Origin: Polyangiales bacterium
Lineage (GTDB): Bacteria; Myxococcota_A; Polyangia; Polyangiales; DASUME01
Direction of reading: 5' to 3'
DNA: 38,466 bases
NCBI GenBank assembly: GCA_040508235.1
Contig: JBEVNG010000011.1
Coordinates: forward strand, 1-38,466
The notes under the pieces were generated by a model. That model did not search any database, was not told the DNA's origin, and saw only the letters and a program-made list of their open reading frames with translations. Below are positions 1 through 24,706 of the stretch, in pieces (within the stretch, counting starts at the first letter, position 1; every line of letters starts with the position of its first letter). The translations under genes and the position numbers were made by a program.

Positions 1-367
1 GGCGCTGGCAGATGCGCCCGGCCACCAGCGAGAGCGTCGACGCAACCTCGCCCATGATCGCGGCCGCGCCGTTGACGTCGATCAGGCGCGAGACGGCGTT
101 GCCCACCTCTTCGGCGCGGCCCTGGTCGTCGAGCGCAATCAGCTGCACCTCGCGCCCGAGCAGCCCACCCTGCGCGTTGGCTTCCTCGACCGCGATCTGC
201 GCGCCGCGCAGCGTGCTCTCGCCGAACGTCGCCATCGAGCCGGTCAGCGAGAGATAGGCGCCGATCACAATCGGACCGGTCTCATTGTCGGTACCGGAGC
301 GCTTGCGCTTGCAACCGAACGAGAGCAGCACGGCGCACGCGAGCACCAGAGCGAGGGGGCGCCTCAT
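1..367 (-). CDS. ABC transporter substrate-binding lipoprotein, branched-chain amino acid type (LivJ/LivK-like, PBP type I). This is the N-terminal fragment; the gene continues past the window start.
   Basis: It is not on the ORF track because it runs off the window. The reverse complement from ATG at 367 reads MRRPLALVLLACAVLLSFGCKRKRSGTDNETGPIVIGAYLSLTGSMATFGESTLRGAQIAVEEANAQGGLLGREVQLIALDDQGRAEEVGNAVSRLIDVNGAAAIMGEVAST... This shows a signal peptide plus Cys, and the IGAxLSLTG...GxxxAVEExN..GG..G..v.L...DDq pattern typical of Leu/Ile/Val-binding proteins. Confidence 0.8.
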   Translation of the reverse strand, partial: MRRPLALVLACAVLLSFGCKRKRSGTDNETGPIVIGAYLSLTGSMATFGESTLRGAQIAVEEANAQGGLLGREVQLIALDDQGRAEEVGNAVSRLIDVNGAAAIMGEVASTLSLVAGRICQR

Positions 368-458
368 TGAGTTGCCCTATGGCACGCTCGCGAAGCCGTT
401 ACAAGACTAGACAACCAGGGCCTAAGCACGGATTTCACGGACGTTTCTCTGGAGGGCG

Positions 459-1148
459 CTACGGCTCCACCGGCGTGAGATTCGCCGGATCGTCGACCTC
501 GGTGCGGTTCATCCTCGGGTCGACGCGCCACACGCGCAACTCTTCGGCCGACGGCACCAACAGCGCCTTGAGCTGCTCGCGCGAGCTCTCCTCTTCACCG
601 AGCCAGCGCGCGAACGCGTCCGGCTCCAGGATCGCGGGCATGCGGTCGTGCACCGCCTTCAACGTCGGGTTCGCGTCGACGGTGATGATCGCGACCGTGC
701 GCAGCCACTCGCCCGTCGCCGGATCCATCCAGTTTTCCCAGATGCCGGCCAGCGCGAGCGGCTGCCCGTCTTCGCGCTGGATCGCCCAGGGCAGCTTCTG
801 CTTGCCCTGCCTGGTCCACTCGTAGAAGCCGTGCACCGGGATCAAGCAGCGCCGCTTGGCGAACGCAGCGCGGTAGTTGGGAGCGCGGTCGACCGTCTCC
901 GCGCGCGCATTGATCGACTTGTAGGCGCCCTTCTTGTCCGGCGCGAAGTGCGGGATCAGCCCCCAGTGCAGCGCGTCCAGGGAGCGACCGGCTCGGTCGG
1001 GGCGCGCGCGGATGACCAGGATGTCCTGGCCCGGGCCGACGTTGTAGCGCGGACGGGTCGCTTCCTCGCTAACCGCCGCCGACGACTCGGCCTGGAAGTA
1101 CTCGTGCAGATCCTCCTCGAGGATGTCCTGAAAGAAGCGGCCACACAT
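459..1148 (-). CDS. SOS response-associated peptidase (SRAP / YedK / HMCES family)
   Basis: Track ORF 459..1328 was trimmed to the internal ATG at 1148, so the protein begins MCGRF. The catalytic Cys must be residue 2 in this family. The result is 229 aa, the typical size. A purine-rich GGAAGGA lies about 11 nt upstream. Confidence 0.9.
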   Translation of the reverse strand: MCGRFFQDILEEDLHEYFQAESSAAVSEEATRPRYNVGPGQDILVIRARPDRAGRSLDALHWGLIPHFAPDKKGAYKSINARAETVDRAPNYRAAFAKRRCLIPVHGFYEWTRQGKQKLPWAIQREDGQPLALAGIWENWMDPATGEWLRTVAIITVDANPTLKAVHDRMPAILEPDAFARWLGEEESSREQLKALLVPSAEELRVWRVDPRMNRTEVDDPANLTPVEP

Positions 1149-1333
1149 GTTCGTGCTGATCCTTCCATTGATCAGGTGCGCCCGATGTTCGGAGGCGCCG
1201 CCTTGTCCCACCCGGTCGGACCGGTCAGTAGTTGGACCCGTTCGGACAAGTATTTCGAGCCGGAACGGACACGGATGCTCGCAGCGGCGTCCATTGGTTA
1301 GGTGTGAATACCCCGCAGTCAGGGACACCTTCG

Positions 1334-2650
1334 ATGCGCAATTCTTTCTTTGCTTTGGCCCTCCTGGTCGCGGCCTGTGGCAGTGACGGCTCGAACGACG
1401 AGCCTACCCTGGGCAGCGACGCGGATCTCACCGGCATGCCGTGCGAGGTGAAGACCATCCTCGACAGCAAGTGCGGCACCTGCCACGGCGACACGCCCAG
1501 CGGCGGCGCGCCGGTGTCGCTCAGCGAGCTGTCGGCCTTCCAGGGCAAGGCGCTCAATGGTGAGGCGATGTACAAGCGCGTGCTGGAGCGCCTGGCCGAC
1601 ACCAAGGCGCCGATGCCGCCGGTGTCGCGCGAGCAGCTCAGCGAGGCCGAGAAGAAGACGCTCGGCGACTGGCTCAACGCCAAGGCGCCTGCCAGCGAAC
1701 AGACCTGCAACGACGACAAGTCGACGCCGGACGCGGGCGCGCTGCCCGACACGGTCCCGGACTCCGAGTGTGAGGTGATCATCGAGCTGCGTGCGCACCA
1801 GAGCCAGACGCTCGACGACGCCACCGGCTACACGCCGCCGTCGGCCGACGATCACTACGAGTGCTTCCACTTCCCGGTGCCCTGGCTCAACAAGATGCAG
1901 GTGCTGAAGATCGAGCCGCTGATCGGCGACCAGCGCGTGCTGCATCACTTCCTGCTCTACCAAGATCCCAAGAAGGTCGCCGAGGACGGCGCCCACGAGA
2001 AGTGCCTCGGCGTGCACCCGGATGCCTCGCTGCTGACGGGCTGGGCGCCCGGTGGCCAGCCGGTCTCGCTGCCCAGCGACGTCGGCCTGCAGGTGGCGCA
2101 GGGTCCCGAGGCGCAGTTCAACCTGGAGATCCACTACAACAACCAGGCGCGCTACCCGGACATCAAGGACAACAGCGGCGTGCGCATCTGCGCGACCAGC
2201 AAGCTGCGCAAGAACGAGGCGTCGTCGCACTGGCTCGGCAGCGAGCTGATCTTGTTGCCTCCCGGGCAGCAGACCGATGTGCAGTCCTGGTGCCAGCCTC
2301 AGAAAGAGGCGCACATCATCAGCGTGTCGCCGCACATGCACAAGCTCGGTCGCCACATGAAGACGATCATCACGCGCAAGGACGGCACGCTGGAGACGCT
2401 CAACGACCGGCCGTTCGACTTCAACGATCAGCAGATCTATCCGGTCGGTGGCGCCGCGCGTGAGGTGGTGGTCGGACCAGGCGACATGCTGACCACGACC
2501 TGCACCTTCCAGAACGAGGGCACCAACTTCGTCAGGTTCGGCGAAAGTACAAACATGGAGATGTGTTACAACTTCGTGGTCGCCTGGCCCGCGGGCTCTC
2601 TGGACACGGGTGGCACCCTGCTCGAGGGTCCCAACCGCTGCCAGAAGTAG
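1334..2650 (+). CDS. Lipoprotein with an N-terminal CxxCH (planctomycete cytochrome c-like) module and a copper type II (PHM/DBH-like) monooxygenase core, paralog A
   Basis: Track ORF 1232..2650 was trimmed to ATG 1334, giving MRNSFFALALLVAAC-GS (signal peptide plus lipobox). CGTCH occupies residues 47-51, followed by APMPP...LSEAEKKTLGDWL. The copper-site motifs are VLHHFLLY, NLEIHYNN, SPHMHKLG and NMEMCYNF, which match the PHM HH / H / HxH / M ligand pattern. Confidence 0.85.
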   Translation: MRNSFFALALLVAACGSDGSNDEPTLGSDADLTGMPCEVKTILDSKCGTCHGDTPSGGAPVSLSELSAFQGKALNGEAMYKRVLERLADTKAPMPPVSREQLSEAEKKTLGDWLNAKAPASEQTCNDDKSTPDAGALPDTVPDSECEVIIELRAHQSQTLDDATGYTPPSADDHYECFHFPVPWLNKMQVLKIEPLIGDQRVLHHFLLYQDPKKVAEDGAHEKCLGVHPDASLLTGWAPGGQPVSLPSDVGLQVAQGPEAQFNLEIHYNNQARYPDIKDNSGVRICATSKLRKNEASSHWLGSELILLPPGQQTDVQSWCQPQKEAHIISVSPHMHKLGRHMKTIITRKDGTLETLNDRPFDFNDQQIYPVGGAAREVVVGPGDMLTTTCTFQNEGTNFVRFGESTNMEMCYNFVVAWPAGSLDTGGTLLEGPNRCQK

Positions 2651-2687
2651 CGTTGCCTCGGGGCGCCTCGCGCTCCAAGGTTCGCGG

Positions 2688-4001
2688 ATGAGACGCTTGA
2701 TCGGCCTCCGCGACTTCGTCCACGACGTGATCGAGAAGACGACCGACCTGGTCGAGGAGACGCACGAAGCGGCGGCCAAGAAGCCCGTCGACGCGCTCTC
2801 CTCGCTCGGTCTCGAGGCGCCCGCTCGCGCCGTCGACTCGCCGCGCGCGTTGATCGCCAAGCTCGTGTTCGACAGCATCCGCGCCACCAACCGCACCGTG
2901 CAGGCGGTCAGCGACGTGGGCGTGGCGATCGCCAAGCAGGTGGTCCCCGAGCAAGACGAGATCAGCGCGGCCAGCAAGCCCAAGGGCCAGCTGGAGGCGT
3001 GGATCGACGTCGCCGAGAGCGCCCTGAACGCGGTCGCGGGCGACTTCCTGGCGGCGCGGGAGAACGGCCTGTCGATCACCGCGCAGCTGCGTCACCAGGG
3101 CCATCCGCTGACGCTGACGCGCGAGCACCTCGCCACCGTGCTGCCGGATGCGACCGCGAAGATCTGCGTGTTCGTGCATGGCCTCGGCTGCTCGGACTCC
3201 GTGTGGCTGGCTCAGGAGCCCGTCGAGGGCGCGCAGCCGGAGCTCGACTTCGGCAGCAGCGTGCGGCGCGAGCTCGGCTACACGCCGATCTACTTCCGCT
3301 ACAACACCGGCCTGCACATCTCGCAGAACGGTCGCGCGCTGGCTGGCCTGATCGAGGAGTTGATCGCCAGCTATCCGGTGCCCGTCGAGGAGCTGGCGCT
3401 GATCGGCCACAGCATGGGCGGCCTGGTCGTACGCAGCGCGGCGCACTACGCGGACGAGCTCGAGCTCGGCTGGAAGCTCAAGCTGCGTCACGTGCTCTGC
3501 ATCGGCTCGCCCCACTTCGGCGCGCCGCTGGAGCGCGCGGGCAACGTGCTCACCAGCGTGCTGGCGTACTTCGACACCGCGGGCACGCAGGTGCCGGCCA
3601 AGGTGTTCAACGCGCGTAGCGCCGGCATCAAGGACCTGCGCTACGGCTCGGTGCGCGACGAGGACTGGAAGGACCAGGACGCGGACGCGTTCCTCACCGA
3701 CACCAGCCAGCACGCGGCGTTCGTGGATGGCGTGTCGTACGGCTACATCGCGGCACGTTTGCAGCCTGCGGCCGGCTTCGTGGCCGAGCTGGTGGGCGAT
3801 CTGCTGGTGCAGCTCCCCAGTGCATCCGGCCAGCACAAGGACCCGACGCGGGTGCTGCCATTCCAGATGGGGCACGTGCTCGACGGCGTGAACCACGTGG
3901 CATTGCCCACCAATCCCGCGGTTTACCAGCAGGTGGTGCGCTTCCTGAGCGAGTGCAAGCCGAGCCCCGCCGCGGTGCTCGCGAGCCAGGCCGAGGGGTA
4001 G
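2688..4001 (+). CDS. Alpha/beta hydrolase (lipase/esterase-like) with an N-terminal extension of about 170 aa
   Basis: Track ORF 2610..4001 was trimmed to ATG 2688 (MRRLIGLRDF). It has the nucleophile elbow LIGHSMGGLV (GxSxG) and FVHGLGCSDSVW upstream. GC3 is high throughout. Confidence 0.85.
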   Translation: MRRLIGLRDFVHDVIEKTTDLVEETHEAAAKKPVDALSSLGLEAPARAVDSPRALIAKLVFDSIRATNRTVQAVSDVGVAIAKQVVPEQDEISAASKPKGQLEAWIDVAESALNAVAGDFLAARENGLSITAQLRHQGHPLTLTREHLATVLPDATAKICVFVHGLGCSDSVWLAQEPVEGAQPELDFGSSVRRELGYTPIYFRYNTGLHISQNGRALAGLIEELIASYPVPVEELALIGHSMGGLVVRSAAHYADELELGWKLKLRHVLCIGSPHFGAPLERAGNVLTSVLAYFDTAGTQVPAKVFNARSAGIKDLRYGSVRDEDWKDQDADAFLTDTSQHAAFVDGVSYGYIAARLQPAAGFVAELVGDLLVQLPSASGQHKDPTRVLPFQMGHVLDGVNHVALPTNPAVYQQVVRFLSECKPSPAAVLASQAEG

Positions 4002-4021
4002 CCGGCGCCGGTTCGGCGTGA

Positions 4022-4038
4022 CTGGCACGCCGGCTGCT
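4022..4038 (+). promoter_or_regulatory. Sigma54 (-24/-12) promoter candidate upstream of ypfJ
   Basis: CTGGCACGCCGGCTGCT compared with the consensus YTGGCACGrNNNTTGCW has a single mismatch in the -12 TTGC and a pyrimidine at the loosely conserved r. It lies in the 50-bp gap before ATG 4052. Confidence 0.4.
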
Positions 4039-4051
4039 GTAGAACCTCACC

Positions 4052-4918
4052 ATGAAGTGGATCCCTGGATATCGCAGTGACGACGTCGAGGATCGCCGAG
4101 GCCAAGGCGGCGGTGGCTTCAGCTCCGGCGGCGTCGGCATGCTGTTCACGCTGTTCAAGCTGTTCGGCTTGCCGGGCGTGCTGATCGGCGGCGCCATCAT
4201 GTTCTTCGGCAGCGGCCTGCTCAGCAGCGGTGGCTCCGAGTCGCGCGCCGTGCCGCGTGAAGGCGCGCAGGCCGCGCAGCCCGGCGACGGCAGCGACTTC
4301 GTGGCCTATGTGTTCGACGATGTGCAGAAGACCTGGCAAGGCGTGTTCAGCGAGCACAACGAGCGCTACCAGGGCGCCAAGCTGATCCTGTTCAGCGATG
4401 CCACGCGCACCGGCTGCGGCACGGGTCAGGCGGTGATGGGTCCGTTCTACTGTCCGCTCGACACGCGCGTGTACATCGACCTGAGCTTCTACCAGGAGCT
4501 CAAGCAGCGGTTCGGCGCGCCGGGCGACTTCGCGCAGGCGTACGTGATCGCGCACGAGGTCGGCCACCACGTGCAGCACTTGCTCGGCTACGACGAGAAG
4601 GTGCAGCGCGCGGCCAAGGCGCAGCAGACCGGCGCGGATGCGCTGTCGGTGCGCCTGGAGCTGCAGGCCGACTGCTTCGCCGGACTGTGGGCCAAGGCGT
4701 CCGCTCGCCGCGATCAGCTCGACCCCGGAGACATCGACGAAGCGCTGACCGCGGCGCAGGCGATCGGCGACGACAAGCTGCAGAAGCAGGGCCAGGGCCG
4801 CGTCACGCCGGAGACCTGGACGCACGGCTCGTCGGCGCAGCGAGCGCGCTGGTTCAAGCGCGGCTACGAGCTCGGCACCATCGACGGCTGCGACACCTTC
4901 ACCGCCAGCAAGCTCTGA
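4052..4918 (+). CDS. ypfJ: YpfJ-family putative neutral zinc metallopeptidase (membrane-anchored)
   Basis: The N-terminus MKWIPGYRSDDVEDRRGQGGGG is followed by one hydrophobic helix. It has the HExxH motif in VIAHEVGHHVQ. The overall layout matches E. coli YpfJ-like proteins. Confidence 0.9.
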   Translation: MKWIPGYRSDDVEDRRGQGGGGFSSGGVGMLFTLFKLFGLPGVLIGGAIMFFGSGLLSSGGSESRAVPREGAQAAQPGDGSDFVAYVFDDVQKTWQGVFSEHNERYQGAKLILFSDATRTGCGTGQAVMGPFYCPLDTRVYIDLSFYQELKQRFGAPGDFAQAYVIAHEVGHHVQHLLGYDEKVQRAAKAQQTGADALSVRLELQADCFAGLWAKASARRDQLDPGDIDEALTAAQAIGDDKLQKQGQGRVTPETWTHGSSAQRARWFKRGYELGTIDGCDTFTASKL

Positions 4919-4919
4919 T

Positions 4920-6323
4920 TCACAGCGACAGGGCGCTCGGGAACGTCGACGCGCGCGTGTGGCGGGTGGGCACGACCGCGAACGGGTGCTGCATGCCGAG
5001 CGTGACCATCGGACGCGGGCGCACCGGGAAGTGCGGCGTCGCGCGGATGTCGAAGCGCTGTGCCATCGCTGCCAGGATCACGCGCGCCTCGGTGAGCGCG
5101 AACGTGTTGCCGATGCACATGTGCACGCCGCCGCCGAACGGCAGGTACGCGCCCTCCGGCACGCTCTGCGCACGCTCGGCGCGGAAGCGCTCCGGATCGA
5201 AGCGCACCGGGTTGGCGAACCAGCGCGGATCACGCTGCGTCACCCAGGTACTCCACACCACCTCGGTGCCCGCCGGCACGTGGAAGCCGCCGAGCTCCGT
5301 GTCCTGCGCGTTCACGCGGTCGGCGAACCACGCCGGCGGGTAGAGGCGCAGCGTCTCGCGCACCACGCGGTCGGTCAGCGTCAGCCGCGGCAGATCGTCG
5401 AAGCCCACCTCGCGCTCGCCGAGCGTGCCGCGCACCTCCTGCGTCAGCGCGTCGAGCAGCGTGGGGTTCTGCGTCAGCAGGTACCAGGCCCAGGTCATGG
5501 TGTGCGCGGTGGTGTCGTGGCCCGCGAGCAGCATGGTCAGCGTCTCCGCGCCGATGTCCTGGTCGGTGAGCGCGCTGCCGTCCTCGTCGCGCGCGCTGAT
5601 CAACATCGACAGCAAGTCGCCGCGATCCTCGCCCGAGGCGCGACGCTCGCGCACGATGTCGCGCACGATCTGGTGCAGCTCCGCGATCGCGGCCCGCGCG
5701 CGCTTGCCGTAGTACACGCCCTGCTCGATGCGCACGAGGCGCGACAGCATGGTGGTGGGCATGATCCACGGCATCGCGGTCTGCAGCGCCGCGTCCACTC
5801 GCTCGGCCTCGTGGCCGGTGTCGGTGTTGAACAGCGACCGCGAGACGATCGAGAACGTCAGCCGCATCATCGCTTCGCGCAGGTCGCGCTCCTGACCGCT
5901 CTGCCAGCTCTCCAGCATGCGGTAGGTCTCGTGGGCCATGATGTCGACGTAGCGCTTGATGCGCTCGCGATGGAACGCGGGCGCCATCAGCCGGCGGTGG
6001 CGCAGGTGCTGCGAGCCCTCCAGCGAGAGCAGGCCGATGCCGGCCAGCGTGCCCAGCGCCTTGCGCGTGCTCTGCGTGCGCTCGAAGGTTCGGTCGCGCA
6101 CCACGCGGTCGATCAACGCCGGATCGCTGATCAAGATCGAAGGTTGCAGCCCGACGCGAAAAGCGACGACATCGCCGTAATCGCGCTGCAGCTTGGTCAA
6201 GAACGCGAGCGGATCGGCCAGGAACGCGGGCAGATGTCCGAGCCAGGGCAGCGCGCGGGGGCCAGGCGGTAAACTCAGCTCGCTCTTATCCACAATTGAC
6301 GACCTCCCACGCGGCGGATACAT
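4920..6323 (-). CDS. Cytochrome P450
   Basis: It has the I-helix LLAGHDTT, ExxR in ETLRLYPP and the heme-thiolate loop FGGGVHMCIGNTFA. The start is ambiguous. ATG 6323 lies only 8 bp from the divergent ATG at 6332. An in-frame GTG at 6293 has GGGAGG 9-10 nt upstream and would keep the PPGP N-terminus. Confidence 0.9.
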   Translation of the reverse strand: MYPPRGRSSIVDKSELSLPPGPRALPWLGHLPAFLADPLAFLTKLQRDYGDVVAFRVGLQPSILISDPALIDRVVRDRTFERTQSTRKALGTLAGIGLLSLEGSQHLRHRRLMAPAFHRERIKRYVDIMAHETYRMLESWQSGQERDLREAMMRLTFSIVSRSLFNTDTGHEAERVDAALQTAMPWIMPTTMLSRLVRIEQGVYYGKRARAAIAELHQIVRDIVRERRASGEDRGDLLSMLISARDEDGSALTDQDIGAETLTMLLAGHDTTAHTMTWAWYLLTQNPTLLDALTQEVRGTLGEREVGFDDLPRLTLTDRVVRETLRLYPPAWFADRVNAQDTELGGFHVPAGTEVVWSTWVTQRDPRWFANPVRFDPERFRAERAQSVPEGAYLPFGGGVHMCIGNTFALTEARVILAAMAQRFDIRATPHFPVRPRPMVTLGMQHPFAVVPTRHTRASTFPSALSL

Positions 6324-6324
6324 G
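6296..6324 (+). promoter_or_regulatory. Sigma70-type promoter candidate for monooxygenase paralog B
   Basis: TTGACG is at 6296-6301, followed by a 17-nt spacer and TACATG at 6319-6324. Seven nt later is ATG 6332. Confidence 0.35.
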
Positions 6325-6331
6325 ACTCAGG

Positions 6332-7816
6332 ATGCGTAGAGTCTACTTGTCTTTGCTCGCCTTGAGCGCGCTGTCCTGCAACGAGGATCCGACGCCCGTG
6401 GGCGACATGAGTCCACGGAACACCCCGGACGCGGGCCACGCAGACGCGGGCTCGAGCACCGACAGCAAGCGCGATGGCGGCAAAGCGGACGCCCCCTCGG
6501 CCGCTGCGGACAGCAGCGTCGAGGTCGACGAGGCGCCGATCAGCGAGCAGGACGCCGGCGGCGGCGGCGCCTCGGACAGCGGCCTGCCCTGCGCGGTGCA
6601 GAGCGTGCTCGCGGAGCGCTGCTGGACCTGCCACGACCAGGTGCCGCAGTTCGGCGCGCCGGTGTCTCTGAGCAACTTCGAGCAGCTGCACGCGCAGTCG
6701 CCGCGCGCCAAGGTGCCTTACTATCAGGCGGTCGCGGACCGCATCCAGCCGGGCGAGCTGCCCGCGATGCCCCCCGCCGGACAGCCGCCGCTGAGCGCGG
6801 AACAGCGGGCCACGCTGCTCGACTGGATCGCGGCGGGCGCACCGGCCGGAGAAGCATGCGCCGTGGAGCCTCCGCCCGTGACGGGTGTGGACGCGGGCGT
6901 GGAGCCTCCGCCCGCGGAGAGCGACTGCGACGTGAGCTTCGAGCTACGCGGCACCGACTTCAAGGGCGGCGCGTACCCCGTACCGATGGCCGACGACCAC
7001 TACGAGTGCTTCTACTTCAAGGCGAACATCGAGCCCGGCACGCTGGCCACGCGCCTGACGCCGCTGCTCGACAAGACCAACGTGCTGCACCACTGGCTCC
7101 TGTTCGCGGCCGACAACGAGAACGAGGCGCCGTCCGGCACGCACGCACCGTGCAGCGGCATTCACCCGGGCGCCGCGCTGGCCGCCGCCTGGTTGCCGGG
7201 CACGCCCGAGCTGGTGATGCCCGATGACGTCGGCATGGAGCTGCCCAGTGGTCCGACCGCGCAGTTCATCCTCGAGAACCACTACAACAACATCCCGCGC
7301 TACGAGAACCTCAAGGACGACAGCGGCGTGAAGGTGTGCGCCACCAAGAAGCCCAAGGCGCAGCACGCGGCCATCCACTGGCTCGGCTCGGAGCTGATCT
7401 CGATCCCGCCGGGTGGCAGCGGCTCCGCGAGCGGGACGTGCACGCCCAAGCCGGATGGTCCGGTGCACATCCTCGGCGTGGTGCCGCACATGCACAAGCT
7501 CGGCTCGTACGTGAACATGACCATCCTGCGCGCGAACGGGAGCACCGAGACGCTGCACGACGGCGCGTTCGAGTTCGAGAGCCAGGGCTACTACGCCAAG
7601 GACATCGTGCTGCAGCCGGGCGACCGCGTGACCACCAAGTGCGACTACAAGAACACGTACACACGCACGGTCACGCTGGGCGAACGGACCGGCGACGAGA
7701 TGTGTTACATGTTCACGCTCGCCTACCCGGTCGGCCGCATGAACACCGGCGGCAACTACCTCAACCCGTTCACCGGGCAGCCGTTCATCCAGGGACCGAA
7801 TCGCTGCATGCGATAA
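6332..7816 (+). CDS. Lipoprotein with an N-terminal CxxCH module and a copper type II (PHM/DBH-like) monooxygenase core, paralog B
   Basis: It begins MRRVYLSLLALSALSC (signal peptide plus Cys), then an Asp/Ala/Ser-rich linker. CWTCH occupies residues 97-101, followed by LPAMPP...LSAEQRATLLDWI. The copper motifs are VLHHWLLF, ILENHYNN, VPHMHKLG and GDEMCYMF. Both paralogs end GPNRC. Identity to paralog A is roughly 40-50% by eye. Confidence 0.85.
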   Translation: MRRVYLSLLALSALSCNEDPTPVGDMSPRNTPDAGHADAGSSTDSKRDGGKADAPSAAADSSVEVDEAPISEQDAGGGGASDSGLPCAVQSVLAERCWTCHDQVPQFGAPVSLSNFEQLHAQSPRAKVPYYQAVADRIQPGELPAMPPAGQPPLSAEQRATLLDWIAAGAPAGEACAVEPPPVTGVDAGVEPPPAESDCDVSFELRGTDFKGGAYPVPMADDHYECFYFKANIEPGTLATRLTPLLDKTNVLHHWLLFAADNENEAPSGTHAPCSGIHPGAALAAAWLPGTPELVMPDDVGMELPSGPTAQFILENHYNNIPRYENLKDDSGVKVCATKKPKAQHAAIHWLGSELISIPPGGSGSASGTCTPKPDGPVHILGVVPHMHKLGSYVNMTILRANGSTETLHDGAFEFESQGYYAKDIVLQPGDRVTTKCDYKNTYTRTVTLGERTGDEMCYMFTLAYPVGRMNTGGNYLNPFTGQPFIQGPNRCMR

Positions 7817-7997
7817 ACAAGCAACGCCTGGAGCGCGATCCACGCCGCGATCCACCACCGCTTTCTGCGGTGCGTGTCACGGACAAAAGTCCGCTCCGCG
7901 CGCTCCTCGAAACCGGCGGGCGCCTCACGACGCGCCTCACGCCCCATCCGTCCCTGTTTCGCGAGTTGGCGCGAGTGGGTTCGCTATCGGCAGGGAC

Positions 7998-8792
7998 TCA
8001 GGCCTGAGCGAGCTCGGGCGTCTCCTGCAGGCGCGTTCGCAGGCGGCGGTAGCGGGCGCGGAGTAGCGGGCGGCGCTTGAGGTATGCGAGCAGGCACAGG
8101 CCGTCGAAGGCGAAGTAGAAGATGCTGATGCCGCTCGGCGGATTGCCGCTCGGCAGCAGCTTCACGCCGCCAAACGCGTACTCGTACCAGGTCCAGGCGC
8201 CGAAGCCGGTGCCGACCTGCTCCAGGAACGCCACCAGCAGGTACATCGCGAGGAAGAACGTGCGCGACTCCGCGTCGGCCAGCACGATCCACACGAACAC
8301 CAGCGCGCAGACGGCGCCGAACACGTCGTGCGCGGCGACCAACCACCACAGCGAGTAGCCGACGCTGGCGACGAACATCGCGGAGGTCAACGCGCGCCTG
8401 TGGCGCACCACGAACGGCTCCCGCACGAAGTGGTAGATCGCCCCATAGATCACGGGATGCCCCAGCGGCACGTAGAGCGGGATGTTGTGCAGCCGGTACT
8501 CGTACATGCCGAACACCAGCGAGCAGAGGCTCTCCCCCACGAGCCCGATCACCACACCGTAGCGCATCAGCGCGCGCAGCCGCGGCGGTCCCTGGTGCGC
8601 CATCCAGACGTAGAAGCCGATCATCACCGCGTCCGCGGCCCACTGTCCGTACGGCCAGCGCGCGGCGATGTACGCGCTGTCGAGGCCGCAGATCACGAAG
8701 GTCAGCGGCAGCAGTGCGACCCAAGCGGCCGTGTGCTGCGCGTCCGCGGCCACGCTGCGCGCGGAGATCCCGCGCGCGCTCGTTGTCAGCAT
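7998..8792 (-). CDS. Polytopic membrane protein of unknown function
   Basis: Track ORF 7998..9020 was trimmed to ATG 8792 (MLTTSARG), which is preceded by AGGAGA. There are about 7 hydrophobic segments and a basic C-terminal tail. I recognise no family motif. Confidence 0.7.
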   Translation of the reverse strand: MLTTSARGISARSVAADAQHTAAWVALLPLTFVICGLDSAYIAARWPYGQWAADAVMIGFYVWMAHQGPPRLRALMRYGVVIGLVGESLCSLVFGMYEYRLHNIPLYVPLGHPVIYGAIYHFVREPFVVRHRRALTSAMFVASVGYSLWWLVAAHDVFGAVCALVFVWIVLADAESRTFFLAMYLLVAFLEQVGTGFGAWTWYEYAFGGVKLLPSGNPPSGISIFYFAFDGLCLLAYLKRRPLLRARYRRLRTRLQETPELAQA

Positions 8793-9037
8793 TCCAGTCT
8801 CCTGAAGCGAAGGAGCAAAGTTAGTCCGGGCTGGACCTGCACCTATCACGACTGAGCGCTGTAGCGATGATGCGATGGGCCAAACTATGGGCGCGGCGTG
8901 CAGGCTGTGAGGTGCAGATCTACCCAGGTGTGGCGAGAGGAGACTCCGTCTGCGCTCCAGCTGCGGACTTTCGCAGGATGGCTCGGCTCGTGCAGACCAA
9001 CGGCGCACGCAGTCCCTCACGAAAGGAAGACACTCGC

Positions 9038-9715
9038 ATGGCTAAGCTCACACTCCGCTCGGGCGCGATGTTCATGGTCCTCGCCGGACTCGCCGTGGCC
9101 CCCGCGTGCGCCAAGCAGCACCCCACGACCACCGCGGAGCGCGCCGAGATCGCGCATGGCGAGCTCAAGGCGACCGACTCGCTGACCGCCACGGTCGACA
9201 AGATCGACGCCGCCAACCAGACCGTGTTCCTGCACGACGATCAGGGTCATCACTTCGCGGTCCAGGCCAGCGGCGACGCGCTGGAGCGTCTGCAGCCTGA
9301 CGACCAGATCAAGGTCGTCTACCAGGAGTCGATCAAGTTCGCGCTGCAGGAGTCCAAGAAGTCCGACGCCGAGCAGAAGACCAAGGTCGAGGACCTGACC
9401 CAGCTCAAGGGCGACGACGCCGTCGAGTTCGGGCGCAAGATCTCGACCACGGTGCAGATCCTCGCCGTTGGCGAGCAGGGCTCGGCCGTCGAGTTCCGCG
9501 CGCCCGAGGGGCATGTCCGCACGGTGGCGATCGACGACCACGAGAGTCGCGAGAAGATCGCGGCGCTGCGTCCGGGCGACAAGGTGGCCGTTACCTACGT
9601 CGAGAAGCTCGGCCTGGAGCTGGACGAGTCGCACGTGCTGCAGCGCGTGAAGAAGGGCGCCGAACAGGGCGCGGCCGAAGGCGAGCGCAGCAGCGGCGAC
9701 GAAGCGGCGCGCTGA
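9038..9715 (+). CDS. Secreted protein of unknown function with two internal repeats
   Basis: Track ORF 8867..9715 was trimmed to ATG 9038, which is preceded by AAAGGAAG. The signal peptide is MAKLTLRSGAMFMVLAGLAVAPACA-KQ. Two related segments are present (TVDKIDAANQTVFLHDDQGHHFAVQ...DDQIKVVYQE and TVQILAVGEQGSAVEF...RPGDKVAVTYVE). Confidence 0.7.
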   Translation: MAKLTLRSGAMFMVLAGLAVAPACAKQHPTTTAERAEIAHGELKATDSLTATVDKIDAANQTVFLHDDQGHHFAVQASGDALERLQPDDQIKVVYQESIKFALQESKKSDAEQKTKVEDLTQLKGDDAVEFGRKISTTVQILAVGEQGSAVEFRAPEGHVRTVAIDDHESREKIAALRPGDKVAVTYVEKLGLELDESHVLQRVKKGAEQGAAEGERSSGDEAAR

Positions 9716-9717
9716 GC

Positions 9718-10032
9718 TCAGGCTCGCGTCAGCAGGTCGTCGGTGACCTCCATCGTGAAGGCGGGCTCGACGGCCGCCTCCGCGATGGCATCGACGAAGG
9801 CGCGACGTGTCTCGGGCTCGTCGTAGACCATCTTGGCGTCGAAGGCGCGCTTCCAGGTCTCGTAGTCCGGCCACTCGGCGTAGCCGACGAAGCGGCCGTC
9901 GCGATCCTGGTGCAGGCGCGAGCCGTAGGAGCCGTACTTGGCCGTGATCAGCTCGGTGCCCCGGCACCAGGCGCGCCGAAACTGCTCCTCCTTGCCGGGC
10001 TTGACCCGCCACCAGTACACCGCGACGAACAT
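9718..10032 (-). CDS. Small ABM-fold (antibiotic biosynthesis monooxygenase-like) protein
   Basis: Track ORF 9718..10302 was trimmed to ATG 10032 (MFVAVYWWRVKPGKEEQF), with GGAGG 6 nt upstream. It is 104 aa with a ferredoxin-like ABM pattern. It starts 11 nt after the stop of the upstream gene. Confidence 0.7.
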   Translation of the reverse strand: MFVAVYWWRVKPGKEEQFRRAWCRGTELITAKYGSYGSRLHQDRDGRFVGYAEWPDYETWKRAFDAKMVYDEPETRRAFVDAIAEAAVEPAFTMEVTDDLLTRA

Positions 10033-10043
10033 GGCGACCTCCG

Positions 10044-10715
10044 CTACTTGTCGAGCGCACGCTCGAGCGCGCGCAGGTTCTCGGACGAGAGCGCGAACCC
10101 GAACGCGAGGTACGTCCCGTTGTCGCGGTAGCCAGGGTTGTGCGCGGCGTATGCGCGCACCTGGGGCGACGCGTAGAAGCTCTCCGGGTAGGCGGCGAGT
10201 TGCTGCGGCGTGATCTGGATGCCCACGCGCACCAGGCCGGTCGCACGGTCGTACGCAAAGTCGCTCTCGCGCGCGAGCCGCTCGATGGCGTCGCACTGCC
10301 ACGCGGGTACGTCCGGTGCGCGCACGATCTCGTAGTGCGCGAGCGCGCGCGTGATCGAGGCGAAGCCAAACAGGCTGGCCATGCTCAGGCGATGCACGGT
10401 GGGGAAGCGCTGCAGCTGCTCGCGGTAGAACGCGAGCCCCGAGCGAAGGTGCAGCGACCGCCTGCGATACGACGGCGCGATGCGCAGCTTGCCGCCCACG
10501 ATCAGGCGCGCCTCCGGCACCGTGAGCGCCTTCCAGAACTGAAAGCCGATCACGGCGCCCCGGTCGCGGAACAGGTGTACGCAGTCGTTGGTGTTCGCGT
10601 GCTTGTCGAAGTGCGCACGCGGCTCGGCGCTCATGGTGATCGCGAGCGCATGCAGCTCGTCGAGCAGCGCGGGCGTCCAGACTTCACGCGGATGGACTTC
10701 GAGAGCAGGCTCCAC
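10044..10715 (-). CDS. Hypothetical protein, possibly a GNAT-fold acyltransferase
   Basis: This 223-aa ORF has high GC3 and a GTG start at 10715, 17 nt after the carotenoid oxygenase stop. The segment GGKLRIAPSYRRRSLHLRSG only loosely resembles an acyl-CoA-binding loop. The function is not established. Confidence 0.65.
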   Translation of the reverse strand: MEPALEVHPREVWTPALLDELHALAITMSAEPRAHFDKHANTNDCVHLFRDRGAVIGFQFWKALTVPEARLIVGGKLRIAPSYRRRSLHLRSGLAFYREQLQRFPTVHRLSMASLFGFASITRALAHYEIVRAPDVPAWQCDAIERLARESDFAYDRATGLVRVGIQITPQQLAAYPESFYASPQVRAYAAHNPGYRDNGTYLAFGFALSSENLRALERALDK

Positions 10716-10735: not shown

Positions 10736-12196
10736 TCAGAGCGCGCGGAAGTTGCCGTGGAACCCCAGCGGCAGCGCCAGCTCCACGTCGCAGTGCGCCA
10801 GCGCCTCCATGGTGCGCGCGTCGATCACCGCCAGCGTCGCGCGGTCCTCCCGCAGGTGCGAGCCGACCGACAGCAGCACGCCGTCGTCTTCCTCCTGCGC
10901 TCCCGGTCGCGGCACGAACACGGGCTCACCGTAGGTCACGTCCGGCTCGCTGAAGCGGCGTACCTCGGGCTGCTCGCGATCGAGGCGCACCACCTCCGAG
11001 CGCCAACCGTCGGTGGCATCGTGCAACGCGAGGCCCCAGGCGTAGCGGTACGGGCGCCCGTGTACGCGGGCGTAATTGATCGCAGGAAAGTCGAAGCCGA
11101 CGTTCGAGAGCTGCTCCAGCTCCACGCGCTTGGCGCCCGGACGCAGGCGCGCCCGCACATAGCGCGGTGCGAAGTTGGGCAGCTTGCCGCGCGCGAGCTT
11201 GTCGGTGGTCAGCGCGTCGATCACGCTGGCGTCGTCGAAGGCCACGAAGTCGAACACCACGTCGTCGCCCTGCTCGAACGTGTTGACCACGTGGAAGCAG
11301 AACAGCGTCTCGGTCTCGTAGCGCGTCCAGCTGCCGCGCTTGCGATCGAACAGGTGCAGGAAGGTGCCCGTCTCCGGCTGCCACTTGAAGCGCTCGATGA
11401 ACGGCCGGTCGGTCCACAGCAGCGACAGCGCATTCACGCGCAGCGGGTGCTCGATCAACACTACATGCCGCGCGGTGACGCCGAAATCGTGCAGGTACGG
11501 CGTGCGGCTGAACGCGAGCTTGCCCTCCAGCGTGCGCGCCTTGTCGTGCGGGCCCTGACGGAACACGGAGATCTCACTCTTGGGCCCGAACGTGGTGCCC
11601 AGGTTGACCAGCGCGTTGCCCACGAAGTCGTAGTGCGGATGCGCGGTGGTGTTCATGCCCTTGGGCAGCTCGTCCTGGTACTCGTAGAGCCCACGCGTGG
11701 CCATGTCGTCGCTGCCGATCACGTGCTGCGCCGGGGTCTCGGTCATCGCGAGCCATGCGCCCTGCCAGGGCACCACGTTCACGTTCGTGTTGTCGGTCAG
11801 CGGCGGCGCCGGCTGCACCAGGCGCTGGAAGAAGCTGCGCTTCATCGGCGTGCCGAACGAGCCCATGCGGTTGCCGCCCGCCGCGGCGTGTTGCGCCGCC
11901 TTCGACGCCAGCAAGCGCTGCCGGAACGTCACGCCCTGCGGGCCAAAGTTGAACCCGTACATCAGGCCGAGGCCGTCGAACCAGTGCGCGGCACGCCAGC
12001 CCTCGGTCTCGAACACCGCCGGCGCCGTGCGCACCAGCTGCCCCGAGAGCCAGCTCGGAAGCTCGCCACGTGGCTGCACCGGCAGCTGGTCCTGGTTGCG
12101 TGCGGTCCAACGAAACGGTGCGCGATCGAGCGCGGGCTGCGCATGCACCGCGGGTACGGCCTGGAAACGGGTGAGCGTGGAGACGGCTTGGCTCAT
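10736..12196 (-). CDS. Carotenoid oxygenase family dioxygenase (CCD/RPE65/lignostilbene dioxygenase family)
   Basis: The N-terminal pattern is GELPSWLSGQLVRTAPAVFE...HWFDGLGLMYGF. Four conserved His contexts are present: TAHPHYDF, LHDFGVT, CFHVVNTFE and LGFHGNF. It is 486 aa, with TGGAG upstream of the ATG. Confidence 0.92.
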   Translation of the reverse strand: MSQAVSTLTRFQAVPAVHAQPALDRAPFRWTARNQDQLPVQPRGELPSWLSGQLVRTAPAVFETEGWRAAHWFDGLGLMYGFNFGPQGVTFRQRLLASKAAQHAAAGGNRMGSFGTPMKRSFFQRLVQPAPPLTDNTNVNVVPWQGAWLAMTETPAQHVIGSDDMATRGLYEYQDELPKGMNTTAHPHYDFVGNALVNLGTTFGPKSEISVFRQGPHDKARTLEGKLAFSRTPYLHDFGVTARHVVLIEHPLRVNALSLLWTDRPFIERFKWQPETGTFLHLFDRKRGSWTRYETETLFCFHVVNTFEQGDDVVFDFVAFDDASVIDALTTDKLARGKLPNFAPRYVRARLRPGAKRVELEQLSNVGFDFPAINYARVHGRPYRYAWGLALHDATDGWRSEVVRLDREQPEVRRFSEPDVTYGEPVFVPRPGAQEEDDGVLLSVGSHLREDRATLAVIDARTMEALAHCDVELALPLGFHGNFRAL

Positions 12197-12208
12197 GGTG
12201 CAGCTCCA

Positions 12209-12257
12209 ATCTTGTCGATGTCTAGATGCTGCGATCCCATCTTGCTTGTGTCAAGAT
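12209..12257. promoter_or_regulatory. Pair of 19-bp operator-like elements in the TetR / carotenoid-oxygenase divergent intergenic region
   Basis: ATCTTGTCGATGTCTAGAT is at 12209-12227 and ATCTTGCTTGTGTCAAGAT at 12239-12257. They share 14/19 positions and lie 30 bp apart start to start. The second contains the perfect inverted arms ATCTTG/CAAGAT. Each lies 12-13 nt from one of the two start codons. Confidence 0.4.
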
Positions 12258-12895
12258 CAGCTTCGCAAGATGCCGACATCACGCCCCAAGCGCAGCTATC
12301 ACCACGGCGATCTCCGGCGCGCGCTGGTCGACGCGGCCTGGCAGCTGGTGCGAGACGGAGGTCTGCAAGCGCTGAGCCTGCGCGAGGTCGCGCGCGTGGT
12401 CGGCGTCAGCCACGCGGCGCCGTACCATCACTTCCCCACGCGCGGCGCACTGCTCGATGCGCTCGCGGAGCAGGCCTTCACGGGCCTCGAACACGCGCAG
12501 CGCGTGGCGCTCGGCGACCTGACCGACGGACCCCAGATGCTCTACGCGATCGGCCGCGCGTACATCGACTTCGCGCGCGAGCACCCCGAGCAGGTGCTGG
12601 TGATGTTCCGCGCGCGCGCGGAGGACGAGGGCGCGTCTCCCGCCTCGCTCATCGAGATCGGCGAGCGCGCTTTCGCCCAGCTGTTCGACGTCGTCTCGAC
12701 CTGCCAACAGCAAGGCGCCGCCCCGCAGGGCGACACCCACGAGCTCGCACTCGCGCAGTGGAGCCTGGTGCACGGCTTCGCCAAGCTCTGGGTCGAGGGC
12801 CCGCTCACTGTGATGCCCTCCTACGCCAACAGCTTCGAGCGCCTGCGCGACGCCCTGCTGCACGGCGTGCGCGAGGGCTGGAGCGCACAGGCACG

Positions 12896-13924
<1,029 letters not shown>

Positions 13925-17065: not shown

Positions 17066-17135
17066 CGGCACGGGTCGGTCTCTCGAATGAGTCGGTCCAG
17101 GATTTCTGCGGGAGATCGATCCGTGCCGCCTTTTC
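17066..17135 (+). terminator. Intrinsic-terminator-like hairpin downstream of the EamA gene
   Basis: 17066-17085 pairs with 17109-17128 as a 20-bp stem. This includes 3 G-U pairs when read as plus-strand RNA. The loop is 23 nt, and CCTTTTC follows. The element lies between convergent genes. Confidence 0.55.
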
Positions 17136-18786
17136 AATCTGGAAGCCCCAGCGCGCGCACGGCGCCGTCGTCGCTCTCCCCGAGCTCCGCTACCGCGCGA
17201 TTGCCGCTGATCACGTAGACGCGGCCTTCCGAGACCACGGGCCCCGAGATCGCGCGCCCCGGGAACGTGAACTGCGCGACGGGAATGCCGAGGTCGGCTT
17301 GCAGCGCGATCAGCGAGAACGTCGGCAGCGGCACGCCTGCGTCGTCCGCGCCGCTGATCGGCGACGTGAAGTACAGGACGTCCTTGGCGAGCGCGAGCGG
17401 CGCCACGAACACGCCCATCGGCACGTCGAACGTCCAGAGCTGAAACAGGCCGTCGTCCGTGTACGCCTTCACCGTGCCGACGAACGGGCCGGTGTCGGTG
17501 GTCGGGTCGAGGCCGTTCAAGCCGTGCACGAACAGCTTGCCGCGGCCCTGCGCGCCACCGTTCTGCAGACCGCCGAGCTGGTTGGCCTGCTGCACGACTT
17601 GCGTCTGGCGCACCACCTCGCCGGTGGCCGCGTCGAGCACCCACAGCGCGCCGCTCTTCTGCCCGGCGGAGATCACCTTGCGGCCGTACCAGAGGCGATA
17701 GATCTTCGGCGCGTCGCCGAGGTCTTGATCGAGGAAGCGACCGTCTTCGCCGGGCGTCGGGATGCCGCGCACCCAGATGTCGTTGGCGGTGACCTGACGG
17801 TGCCACTTCACGGCGCCGGTCTTGGCGTCGAGCGCGAAGAACGAGTCGCTGCTGTCGGTGGCCTTGCCGTCCGGACCGGGCGAGTAGTTCTGGCCGGTGC
17901 CGATGTAGATCGTCTCGGTCTCCGCGTCGTACGTCGGCTGCGCCCAGATGTCGGCGCCCGACGGCCCCAGCTCGAACGGCGCGATCGCGACCGGCTTCAC
18001 GTCGGCGGCCTTGATGGTCTCGAAGCGCCAGTCTTCGTGGCCGGTCTTGGCGTCGAGCGAGACCACGAAGCCGGTGTGGCTGCAGCACTGGTACGAGGGG
18101 ATGGCCTGCTTGATCAGCAGCGCGTTGTCCTCGATGGCGGCGAAGCCGATCACGACCTTGCCGTTGGCGAGCAGCAGCGAGTTGCCGACGATGCCGCCGA
18201 GCGGGTGCGCGTCGAGCTGCTCCTTCACCCACAGCTCCGCGCCGGTGTCGGCATCGAGTCCGTAGATGTTGCCGTCGAGGTCGCCGAACACGACCGCGTT
18301 CGCTTCCTTGTCGTACACCGCGCCGCCGACGATGGGCGTGCCCGCGATGTCCGGGATCACGCCGCCCACCGGCGAGGGCTTGCCGATCTCCGCCAGCAGC
18401 GGGTTGGGCGGCCGCGTGACGAACTCCCAGCGCAGCGTGCCGTCGAGGTTGAGGGCGAAGAAGCGGCCGCTGTTGGAGCCGACGTAGAGCGCGTCCTCGG
18501 TGACCACCGGCGTGCCGTGCAGCGCGCCGAGCGGCCTGCCATAGCTGGTTCCGTCGAAGGTCCACTTCACGACCAGCTTCGACACGTTGAAGCTGTGGAT
18601 CGTGCGCTCGGCCTTGTTGAAGTGACTGCCCTGCGGGTCGTGGCCGGCCATTGGCCACGTCGCGGACTTGCCCGCGTGCTTCTCGCCCAGGCGCGCGGCC
18701 TGCACGTCCAGCGGTGTGCTCGGTTCCACTTCGCAGGCGGACGACAGCGCGATGCCAGCCACGGCTAGCAAGGGAAGCTTCTTCAT
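17134..18786 (-). CDS. PQQ-like beta-propeller repeat lipoprotein (quinoprotein dehydrogenase-like)
   Basis: The track start 18795 is a GTG. ATG 18786 is preferred because GAGAGGTG lies upstream. The protein begins MKKLPLLAVAGIALSSAC. The N-terminal pattern WPMAGHDPQGSHFNK....FNVSKLVVKWTF and the repeated GTPVV..D.LYVGS..G.FFALN..G motifs are typical of PQQ-type propellers. Confidence 0.85.
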   Translation of the reverse strand: MKKLPLLAVAGIALSSACEVEPSTPLDVQAARLGEKHAGKSATWPMAGHDPQGSHFNKAERTIHSFNVSKLVVKWTFDGTSYGRPLGALHGTPVVTEDALYVGSNSGRFFALNLDGTLRWEFVTRPPNPLLAEIGKPSPVGGVIPDIAGTPIVGGAVYDKEANAVVFGDLDGNIYGLDADTGAELWVKEQLDAHPLGGIVGNSLLLANGKVVIGFAAIEDNALLIKQAIPSYQCCSHTGFVVSLDAKTGHEDWRFETIKAADVKPVAIAPFELGPSGADIWAQPTYDAETETIYIGTGQNYSPGPDGKATDSSDSFFALDAKTGAVKWHRQVTANDIWVRGIPTPGEDGRFLDQDLGDAPKIYRLWYGRKVISAGQKSGALWVLDAATGEVVRQTQVVQQANQLGGLQNGGAQGRGKLFVHGLNGLDPTTDTGPFVGTVKAYTDDGLFQLWTFDVPMGVFVAPLALAKDVLYFTSPISGADDAGVPLPTFSLIALQADLGIPVAQFTFPGRAISGPVVSEGRVYVISGNRAVAELGESDDGAVRALGLPD

Positions 18787-18910
18787 CGGATTCACCTCTC
18801 GGGTGCGCGCGTCCCTGCGCGCACGGGAGGTCTAGACGGCCGGCGAGGCGTTCCGATGGCGTATTCGTGCTACCGATGGGACTCTGCCGCGGGGTAGCTC
18901 ACCAATCAAG

Positions 18911-24663: not shown

Positions 24664-24670
24664 AGCCGCG

Positions 24671-24700: not shown

Positions 24701-24706
24701 CGCTGA

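Follow-up and report, generated by a model that had tools for sequence, protein, structure and literature searches.

The stretch of DNA analysed here (the window) comprises all 38,466 nucleotides given for contig JBEVNG010000011.1 (positions 1 to 38,466, forward strand; GenBank assembly GCA_040508235.1) of a Polyangiales bacterium (GTDB lineage Bacteria; Myxococcota_A; Polyangia; Polyangiales; DASUME01), with a G+C content of ~69% throughout. Near its start lie two paralogous genes, A and B, each encoding a putative lipoprotein in which a predicted cytochrome c module precedes a core resembling the two-copper enzymes peptidylglycine alpha-hydroxylating monooxygenase (PHM) and dopamine beta-monooxygenase (DBH). 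An earlier note on this DNA had described two such paralogs, and we recovered both at the positions it gave, 40% identical across 420 residues (E 2e-105); a tblastn search of the window found these two copies and no third. All motif and residue numbers that the note had assigned to A and B were reproduced by script, and the fusion of a cytochrome to a copper core in a lipoprotein-type protein was likewise present in both. The features of the two genes, with coordinates in the window, are as follows.

1334..2650 (+): gene of paralog A, an open reading frame (ORF) of 438 amino acids plus stop, comprising a lipoprotein signal and then a predicted class I cytochrome c module, joined by a linker to a two-copper core of PHM/DBH type
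1334..1378 (+): A residues 1-15, predicted signal peptide with the lipobox-like L-V-A-A-C15 at its end, read directly from the sequence as MRNSFFALALLVAAC, followed by GS
1436..1708 (+): A residues 35-125, predicted monohaem class I cytochrome c module with C37 and C125 at its borders (from profiles and the structural model)
1472..1486 (+): A C47-G-T-C50-H51, predicted haem c attachment motif and proximal His, invariant in 47/47 aligned relatives
1613..1621 (+): A M94-P95-P96, with the predicted distal (sixth) haem ligand Met; M94 and P95 invariant in the 47-sequence alignment
1709..1768 (+): A residues 126-145, linker from the cytochrome module to the copper core, marked by a dip in model confidence (pLDDT, see below)
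1769..2203 (+): A residues 146-290, predicted N-terminal beta-sandwich with the CuH site (H204/H205 codons 1943-1948, H267 codon 2132-2134)
2204..2647 (+): A residues 291-438, predicted C-terminal beta-sandwich with the CuM site (H334/H336 codons 2333-2341, M410 codon 2561-2563)
6332..7816 (+): gene of paralog B, an ORF of 494 amino acids plus stop, with the architecture of A and a longer N-terminal tether
6584..6859 (+): B residues 85-176, predicted cytochrome c module with C87 and C176 (from alignment to the A module and motif positions)
6620-6634 (+): B CWTCH 97-101 (from motif position)
6767-6775 (+): B MPP 146-148 (from motif position)
6926..7813 (+): B residues 199-494, predicted two-copper core (from Pfam, alignment to A and motif positions)
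7088-7093, 7280-7282, 7487-7495 and 7700-7702 (+): B core ligand codons for H253/H254, H317, H386/H388 and M457, respectively (from motif positions)

In A, the motifs are CGTCH at 47-51, H204/H205 (in VLHH), H267 (in EIHYNN), H334/H336 (in PHMHKLG) and M410 (in EMCY), and the protein also carries DDHYECF at 172 and GPNRC at 432. The corresponding set in B comprises CWTCH at 97-101, H253/H254, H317, H386/H388 and M457, with DDHYECF at 221 and GPNRC at 488.

The copper core was identified by both Pfam families of the superfamily, in agreement with the fold that the note had proposed. Cu2_monooxygen (PF01082; gathering score 30) matched A at 59.7 bits (E 4.4e-16) and B at 35.0 bits (2e-8), and Cu2_monoox_C (PF03712; gathering score 23) matched A at 63.6 bits (2e-17) and B at 49.6 bits (4e-13), all above the gathering scores and extending in A over residues 166-272 and 307-422, respectively. 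A search of PDB sequences with A matched human DBH (1e-17) and rat PHM (1.7e-15), and nothing else. In the sequence alignment, H204/H205/H267 of A correspond to PHM H107/H108/H172 (the CuH site) and H334/H336/M410 to PHM H242/H244/M314 (the CuM site), so that the six copper ligands named in the note pair one-to-one with those of PHM. These six residues were invariant in an alignment of 47 sequences and were present in 100% of 225 relatives, including those that lack the cytochrome. The HH+H site (CuH) of PHM and DBH takes electrons from ascorbate, and the HxH+M site (CuM) activates O2. Second-sphere positions were also kept (Y175, Q366 and E409 of A, equivalent to PHM Y79, Q272 and E313), and the position of PHM Q170 is occupied by Glu (E265) in A.

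An AlphaFold2 model of A, built from the 47-sequence alignment, reached a mean predicted local distance difference test score (pLDDT) of 90.1 and a predicted template-modelling score (pTM) of 0.86. Comparison of this model with the PDB using Foldseek returned 31 PHM/DBH chains (E 1e-16 to 1e-20, ~300 aligned columns), with template-modelling (TM) scores of 0.70-0.78 normalised to PHM and 0.43-0.44 for the longer DBH chains; the next-ranked matches had E ≥ 3.8e-5 and TM < 0.25. The double beta-sandwich expected from the note was therefore recovered in the prediction, at E ~1e-20 to PHM/DBH and with TM 0.75-0.78 when normalised to PHM. By every testable criterion of sequence and modelled structure, A and B are predicted members of the PHM/DBH copper monooxygenase superfamily.

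The core differs from its animal counterparts where those enzymes hold their substrates. Where PHM has its substrate anchors R240, N316 and Y318, A has S332, Y412 and F414; in the family as a whole, position 332 varies (S/W/T), 412 holds Y or F, and 414 holds F. Because these anchors are replaced, the substrate is predicted not to be C-terminal peptidyl-glycine. No DOMON domain was matched in A or B (Pfam, E ≤ 1); A ends ~25 residues past the CuM Met and lacks the DBH-type C-terminal dimerisation region. The lyase PAL (an NHL-repeat protein) was absent from A, from B, from their neighbours in the window and from the neighbours at related loci (Pfam).

PHM, the core of PAM (1PHM, 1OPM, 1SDW), resembles A and B in its two-domain beta-sandwich, its His3 CuH and His2Met CuM sites, its extracytoplasmic location, the equivalents of Y79, Q272 and E313, and the alignment of Cys from its three disulfides (both Cys of C81-C126 and of C293-C315 are aligned in A, and the first Cys of C227-C334). 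It differs in that identity is 22-26%, R240, N316 and Y318 are not kept, Q170 is replaced by Glu, and PAL is missing; unlike the ascorbate-dependent PHM, A and B are bacterial, predicted to be lipid-anchored and equipped with an N-terminal cytochrome c module. DBH, tyramine beta-hydroxylase (TBH) and MOXD1 (4ZEL) share the same core and ligand sets, and DBH was the best sequence match (1e-17), but DBH has an N-terminal DOMON domain and a C-terminal dimerisation domain, unlike A and B. Animal DBH receives its electrons from ascorbate regenerated via cytochrome b561, not from a fused haem c.

The N-terminal module was compared with known cytochromes both alone and as a family. On its own, the A module exceeded the Cytochrome_CBB3 gathering score of 27 with 29.0 bits; when modules were excised from 30 family members for comparison with Pfam, Cytochrome_CBB3 matched 30/30 (best E 2.7e-8) and Cytochrom_C 27/30. 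The earlier note had labelled the module as planctomycete-type (PSCyt1, PF07635). This label was not borne out, as PSCyt1 had no match in full-length A or B at E ≤ 1 (Pfam) and matched 11/30 modules weakly (best E 0.0027); the PSCyt1 identity was rejected, Cytochrome_CBB3 taking its place. When PDB sequences were compared with a profile of the family module, class I cytochromes were matched almost exclusively (E 2.6e-4 to 1e-2), including Kuenenia c552 (7O38; 2.6e-4), cytochrome c6 (3DR0; 3.1e-4), c551 and the cytochrome c subunits of actinobacterial bc1 complexes. In the profile alignment, which covers the length of the domain, the invariant M94-P95 coincides with the Met-Pro pair of c552 and c6, whose methionine we take to be the axial haem ligand. 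In the 47-sequence alignment, C47, C50, H51, M94 and P95 were invariant and P60 and L63 were at least 90% conserved; a Pro and a Leu after the haem motif are characteristic of class I cytochromes, and P60 and L63 resemble these.

In the structural model, the module is helical, with four helices and with its elements in the order helix, CxxCH, loops, Met loop and C-terminal helix; M94-P95 sits in a loop ahead of helix 104-115. Its pLDDT was 90-98 within the full model and 93.9 when the module was modelled in isolation. Exactly one CxxCH per protein was found in 108/120 and 101/135 relatives, and most of those without it were N-terminally cut fragments. A pair of Cys brackets the module in 196/205 members, one lying 10 residues before CxxCH and the other ~31 residues after the Met (C37 and C125 in A), and this pair probably staples the module. 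Two further Cys of A, C146 and C286, were assigned to the core because they are also present in core-only relatives. As judged from these profiles and alignments, the module is probably a monohaem class I cytochrome c of the Cytochrome_CBB3 type, similar to c6, c551 and c552, with a predicted haem.

Both proteins begin with a hydrophobic N-terminus that closes with a lipobox-like Cys, within LVAAC15 (A) or LSALSC16 (B); L-V-A-A-C15 is a good fit to a lipobox, and A-L-S-C16 of B is less canonical. C15 was at least 90% conserved in the 47-sequence alignment, and a Cys following a hydrophobic N-terminus occurs within the first 45 residues of 196/199 module-bearing members. From this signal motif, A and B are predicted to be exported lipoproteins. 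Export from the cytoplasm is required for attachment of haem c by the cytochrome c maturation (Ccm) machinery. Each protein contains 13 Cys, at equivalent positions. C177 and C224 of A are jointly lost in a clade with the motif 'HYEMF', a covariation typical of a disulfide. Across the family, the low-complexity tether between the lipid-bearing Cys and the module spans 0-130 residues (median 75), and the axial Met lies a median of 112 residues, and at most 181, from the HH motif. In the A model, pLDDT falls to 76 and 67 in the residue blocks covering 121-140, in the linker, and some linkers of the family contain Pro/Ser-rich inserts (e.g. P0060).

A word-indexed sequence search found at least 599 relatives, whose database names are either 'hypothetical protein' or derived from single domains ('cytochrome c5', 'mono/diheme cytochrome c family protein', 'Copper type II ascorbate-dependent monooxygenase...'). 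An exhaustive search of representatives clustered at 50% identity returned 387 at E ≤ 1e-30, 1,870 at E ≤ 1e-10 and 5,123 at E ≤ 1e-3. Relatives occur at 172 loci in GTDB species genomes; the 80 of these that were listed are labelled almost entirely Myxococcota or deltaproteobacteria, a few bearing only 'bacterium', 'Proteobacteria' or 'Pseudomonadota'. Groups named among the 80 include Polyangiales, Nannocystaceae, Sandaracinaceae, Labilithrix and Bradymonadia, and one Nannocystaceae assembly accounts for at least five of the listed loci. Three complete genomes of cultured Sorangium, Sorangium cellulosum included, are also among them, and their proteins show every element of the architecture (lipobox, CQTCH, MPP, VHH, PHMH and EMC).

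The architecture of the family was surveyed in 255 retrieved relatives. CxxCH or CxxxCH was present in 210, and ~90% were fused; ~20 were N-terminally cut gene calls that still contained the MPP part of the module, and ~12-16 were full-length lipoproteins consisting of the copper core only, with all six ligands kept. That ~90% are fused while core-only relatives keep their ligands suggests that the module is a detachable accessory, like other fused redox partners. Identity between core-only and fused proteins is 65-73% in some cases (e.g. P0153 to P0090), and other core-only proteins form their own group; the related core-only and variant proteins include P0143, P0224, P0153, P0243, P0200 and P0206, of which P0143 has CAGTCH (a CxxxCH motif) and P0224 retains only the 'CH' of the motif. 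The closeness of core-only to fused relatives implies repeated loss of the module, in which case a separate donor would be used.

Four further genes lie beside or between A and B.

459-1328 (-): SRAP (YedK-like abasic-site sensor), divergent from A; this placement is kept only in the nearest relative
2688-4001 (+): PGAP1-like alpha/beta hydrolase, between A and B
4052-4918 (+): YpfJ-type Zn_peptidase, between A and B
4920-6323 (-): cytochrome P450 (Pfam 6.3e-85), between the peptidase and B and divergent from B

The nearest related locus (L001, 71% identical) has the order SRAP (-), A, PGAP1-like hydrolase, Zn_peptidase, B and lipoprotein. Gaps between its same-strand genes are 24-163 bp, and A, hydrolase, peptidase and B lie 24-45 bp apart in an operon-like arrangement. 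The P450 is absent from that position in this otherwise syntenic locus, so it was gained or lost recently. Our neighbour search covered 86 related loci, L001 and a second locus, L002, included, and genes related to the window neighbours (SRAP, PGAP1-like, Zn_peptidase, P450, membrane protein, lipoprotein, ABM and RPE65) were found at 0/84 of the loci outside these two. All-vs-all clustering of neighbouring ORFs gave no cluster present in more than 8 loci, except for the gene itself and overlapping shadow ORFs, and at distant loci the gene is solitary amid unrelated genes. The arrangement around A and B is lineage-specific. Conserved operon partners, and a function read from gene context, were dropped as candidates since the neighbours recur only in L001 and L002. 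The lack of a conserved neighbour across the 86 loci argues that neither a separate reductase nor any other dedicated partner gene lies nearby, which fits a built-in redox partner. Within positions 1-9800, no promoter-like sites were found, and six terminator-like sites were counted compared with 3.5 ± 1.8 in shuffled sequence, none of them informatively placed.

Other parts of the window encode further putative redox proteins. A 518-amino-acid putative lipoprotein (31672-33228, -; LFAC followed by SDG) contains CRQCH near residue 227 and CASCH near residue 425. Its C-terminal Cytochrome_CBB3-type module scored 29.4 bits and ends in 'GAMPPP...L..YL', a motif layout as in A and B; the remainder of the protein had no Pfam match, and a BLASTP comparison with A was not significant (E 0.86). 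This protein may be either a redox partner or a further periplasmic enzyme with a fused cytochrome c. A 553-amino-acid protein (17134-18795, -) contains a beta-propeller of the PQQ-dependent dehydrogenase type (Pfam PQQ, 2.6e-29) and is likely a periplasmic redox enzyme. An RPE65-family carotenoid-cleavage oxygenase (10736-12196, -; 2.4e-102) lies beside a TetR-family regulator (11697-12929, +); the two ORFs overlap, and the TetR gene probably starts further downstream than its listed ORF. A small ABM-like ORF (9718-10302) lies just upstream; its match is weak at 21.9 bits, below the gathering score of 23.1.

The region 23398-29106 (-) contains three long ORFs (552, 363 and 903 amino acids) that had no Pfam match at E ≤ 1e-4, and a Rhomboid-domain ORF (26360-27373) on the opposite strand overlaps the 903-amino-acid ORF; some ORFs of this region may be shadow ORFs in this high-GC DNA. 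A Rhomboid gene also adjoins the homologue at a third related locus, L003. The remaining annotated genes encode a type III glutamine synthetase (19276-21573, +), a sigma-54 response regulator adjoining a response-regulator/Hpt protein (33268-35743, -) and an ATP-dependent DNA ligase (37171-38454, -).

Taken as a whole, A and B would be periplasmic C-H hydroxylases in which a tethered haem feeds CuH in the place of ascorbate, a reading that we hold with moderate confidence. Each protein would be Sec-exported, lipid-anchored and periplasmic and would have five parts: the lipobox Cys would be followed by a tether, flexible and of low complexity, that leads to the monohaem class I cytochrome c, and a second flexible segment, the linker, would join this to a non-coupled two-copper monooxygenase core of PHM/DBH type. 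Ccm would load haem c on C47 and C50, with H51 and M94 as axial ligands, and the two coppers would be loaded after export and acylation. The haem would then be reduced, one electron at a time, by the pool of respiratory cytochrome c in the periplasm and would pass these electrons to CuH (H204, H205, H267), two per turnover, which is the job of ascorbate in animals; from CuH they would move to CuM (H334, H336, M410), which would bind O2 and hydroxylate a C-H bond of the substrate. The substrate would lie in the cleft between the two beta-sandwiches and would be something other than a C-terminal peptidyl-glycine, and the enzyme would work without dedicated partner genes. To our knowledge, ascorbate is not generally made by bacteria.

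The loading of haem and copper, the direction and route of the electrons and the hydroxylase chemistry are proposed on the basis of homology and of two precedents, the cytochrome c-tethered copper nitrite reductases and the X183 domain. Fungal cellobiose dehydrogenase follows the same concept: its haem domain, mobile on a flexible linker, delivers electrons one at a time to lytic polysaccharide monooxygenases (LPMOs). That domain differs from the module of A and B in carrying haem b, in having another fold, in transferring electrons between proteins and in belonging to a secreted fungal enzyme. In the three-domain copper nitrite reductases, a fused class I cytochrome c feeds the electron-entry copper and replaces a donor protein (PMC6038957, PMC13324648). 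These enzymes (e.g. RpNiR of Ralstonia pickettii) are the closest precedent for the wiring proposed for A and B; unlike A and B, RpNiR is a cupredoxin trimer that reduces nitrite, carries its cytochrome at the C-terminus and does not activate O2. The X183 domains of Cbp2D-type proteins (CjX183 and TtX183A; 8Q1V) are likewise small monohaem c-type domains of extracytoplasmic multidomain proteins, and CjX183 can take the place of ascorbate as reductant of the copper in a bacterial LPMO (PMC8981238). They differ in not being fused to their copper enzyme, and their structural match to the module was not significant (E 1.0, TM ~0.5); LPMOs themselves, unlike A and B, are single-copper histidine-brace enzymes of an unrelated fold.

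Several results weigh against a haem that feeds the core. In the full-length proteins, Cytochrome_CBB3 scored 24.5 bits in A and 18.4 in B, below its threshold. Foldseek comparison of the isolated, haem-free module gave no significant match (best E 1.0, TM 0.31-0.50), with TtX183A ranked first (TM 0.45-0.50, E 1.0); the four top-ranked of these non-significant matches (8Q1V, 8QK0, 2EXV and 8YTS) were all c-type cytochrome domains, which speaks in favour of a cytochrome. The TtX183 domains, which came closest to the module in structure, reportedly failed to activate TtAA10, their cognate LPMO (PMC10916295). Linker length also varies widely within the family, and comparison of 209 fused with 16 core-only cores identified a single differential position, P195, and no core surface patch specific to the fused members. 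The lack of such a patch argues against a fixed docking interface, which a mobile tether would not need; together with the variable linkers it suggests that the module may be mobile rather than rigid. In favour of the reading, a pTM of 0.86, reached despite ~50 disordered residues in the 438-residue chain, suggests that the model docks the 90-residue module on the core with confidence.

Four other explanations were weighed. In one, which we consider unlikely, the cytochrome would merely prime the core, with H2O2 then serving as co-substrate (a peroxygenase, as proposed for LPMOs), or the haem would limit uncoupled reduction of O2. PHM can run a peroxide shunt in vitro. Also in its favour, CjX183 reduces a bacterial LPMO with less H2O2 and less enzyme damage than ascorbate (PMC8981238), and the related TtX183A was the top-ranked, non-significant, structural match to the module. 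However, reduction of O2 by PHM and DBH is tightly coupled to hydroxylation, with two electrons used per turnover (PMC9064607), and 100% conservation of all residues of the CuH site, where electrons enter, suggests that electrons are delivered repeatedly; nothing in the sequence separates a peroxygenase from a monooxygenase mode.

It is improbable that the CxxCH module is haem-free, that is, a Cys- or metal-binding helical domain for copper capture or delivery, or a disulfide cap, with electrons supplied by a small molecule or a separate protein. Such a module would account for the sub-threshold Cytochrome_CBB3 scores of full-length A and B, the non-significant Foldseek match of the isolated module, its two extra conserved Cys, the rare relatives with CxxxCH or only CH, and the core-only relatives that manage without it. 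Yet the similarity to class I cytochromes spans the whole domain and places the Met on the Met-Pro methionine, Cytochrome_CBB3 matched 30/30 and Cytochrom_C 27/30 modules, the C, C, H and M-P positions are strictly invariant with P60 and L63 at least 90% conserved, and an export signal is present, as Ccm requires. CxxxCH, moreover, is a known haem-binding variant.

Electrons might also flow in the reverse direction, with the core acting as an oxidase or dehydrogenase and the cytochrome c carrying electrons to the respiratory chain, as in quinohaemoprotein dehydrogenases. Dehydrogenases fused to cytochrome c are common in the periplasm, and other genes of the window specify a beta-propeller of PQQ type and a further cytochrome c lipoprotein. 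We regard this direction as very improbable, given that every characterised enzyme of this fold and ligand set known to us (PHM, DBH and TBH) consumes electrons for O2 activation at the His2Met CuM, that the His3 and His2Met sets and the second-sphere residues are conserved unchanged, and that no organic cofactor-binding domain was found in A or B (Pfam).

True bacterial orthologues of PHM (peptide alpha-amidation) or DBH (beta-hydroxylation of phenylethylamines), acting on secreted peptides or amines, would explain the shared fold and ligands and the E values of 1e-15 to 1e-17 to both enzymes, but we rejected orthology to either as highly improbable, because R240, N316 and Y318 are replaced by S332 (S/W/T), Y412 (Y/F) and F414, neither a PAL/NHL lyase nor a DOMON domain was found in A, B or the genes around them, A shares just 22-26% identity with PHM and DBH, and several divergent paralogs per genome suggest varied substrates.

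The earlier note knew of no bacterial member of this fold with an assigned substrate, and our full-text literature searches agree with it within their limited coverage. They found no study of bacterial members of the PHM/DBH fold, most papers in subscription journals lying outside that coverage, and no relevant study among the matches listed that links 'noncoupled binuclear copper' with bacteria or peptidylglycine with myxobacteria. All characterised PHM/DBH members known to us are eukaryotic and ascorbate-driven. The domain matches are already in databases; what is new is that the core is bacterial, carries a predicted lipid anchor and is fused to a predicted class I cytochrome c. The finding itself is confirmed and conserved, and the proteins are uncharacterised.

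If the tethered-haem reading is true, a PHM/DBH-type core can run on respiratory electrons, and the covalent haem would let electron transfer be timed by built-in optical and electrochemical signals. Debates on PHM and DBH concern how two electrons reach and cross the ~11 Å gap between the coppers, and whether the active form is 'open' or 'closed'. Were the haem's role to prove wrong, a well-supported bacterial branch of a known superfamily would remain. More tentatively, and as a possibility that we hold to be doubtful at present, A and B may represent a new class of 'cytochrome c-dependent' monooxygenases of the PHM/DBH fold, wired to the respiratory chain and expanded in predatory and polymer-degrading Myxococcota, with substrates of a non-animal type such as prey-, cell-wall-, lipid- or lignin-derived compounds undergoing C-H oxidation in the periplasm or at the cell surface. 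Such a class would offer the first natural system in which to trigger and follow electron delivery to CuH and the disputed transfer from CuH to CuM. If the tethered-haem reading holds, such a bacterial enzyme would also open a large family (387 clusters at 50% identity, E ≤ 1e-30) to substrate discovery and biocatalysis, and would bear on the origin of the peptide-amidating and catecholamine-forming enzymes of animals.

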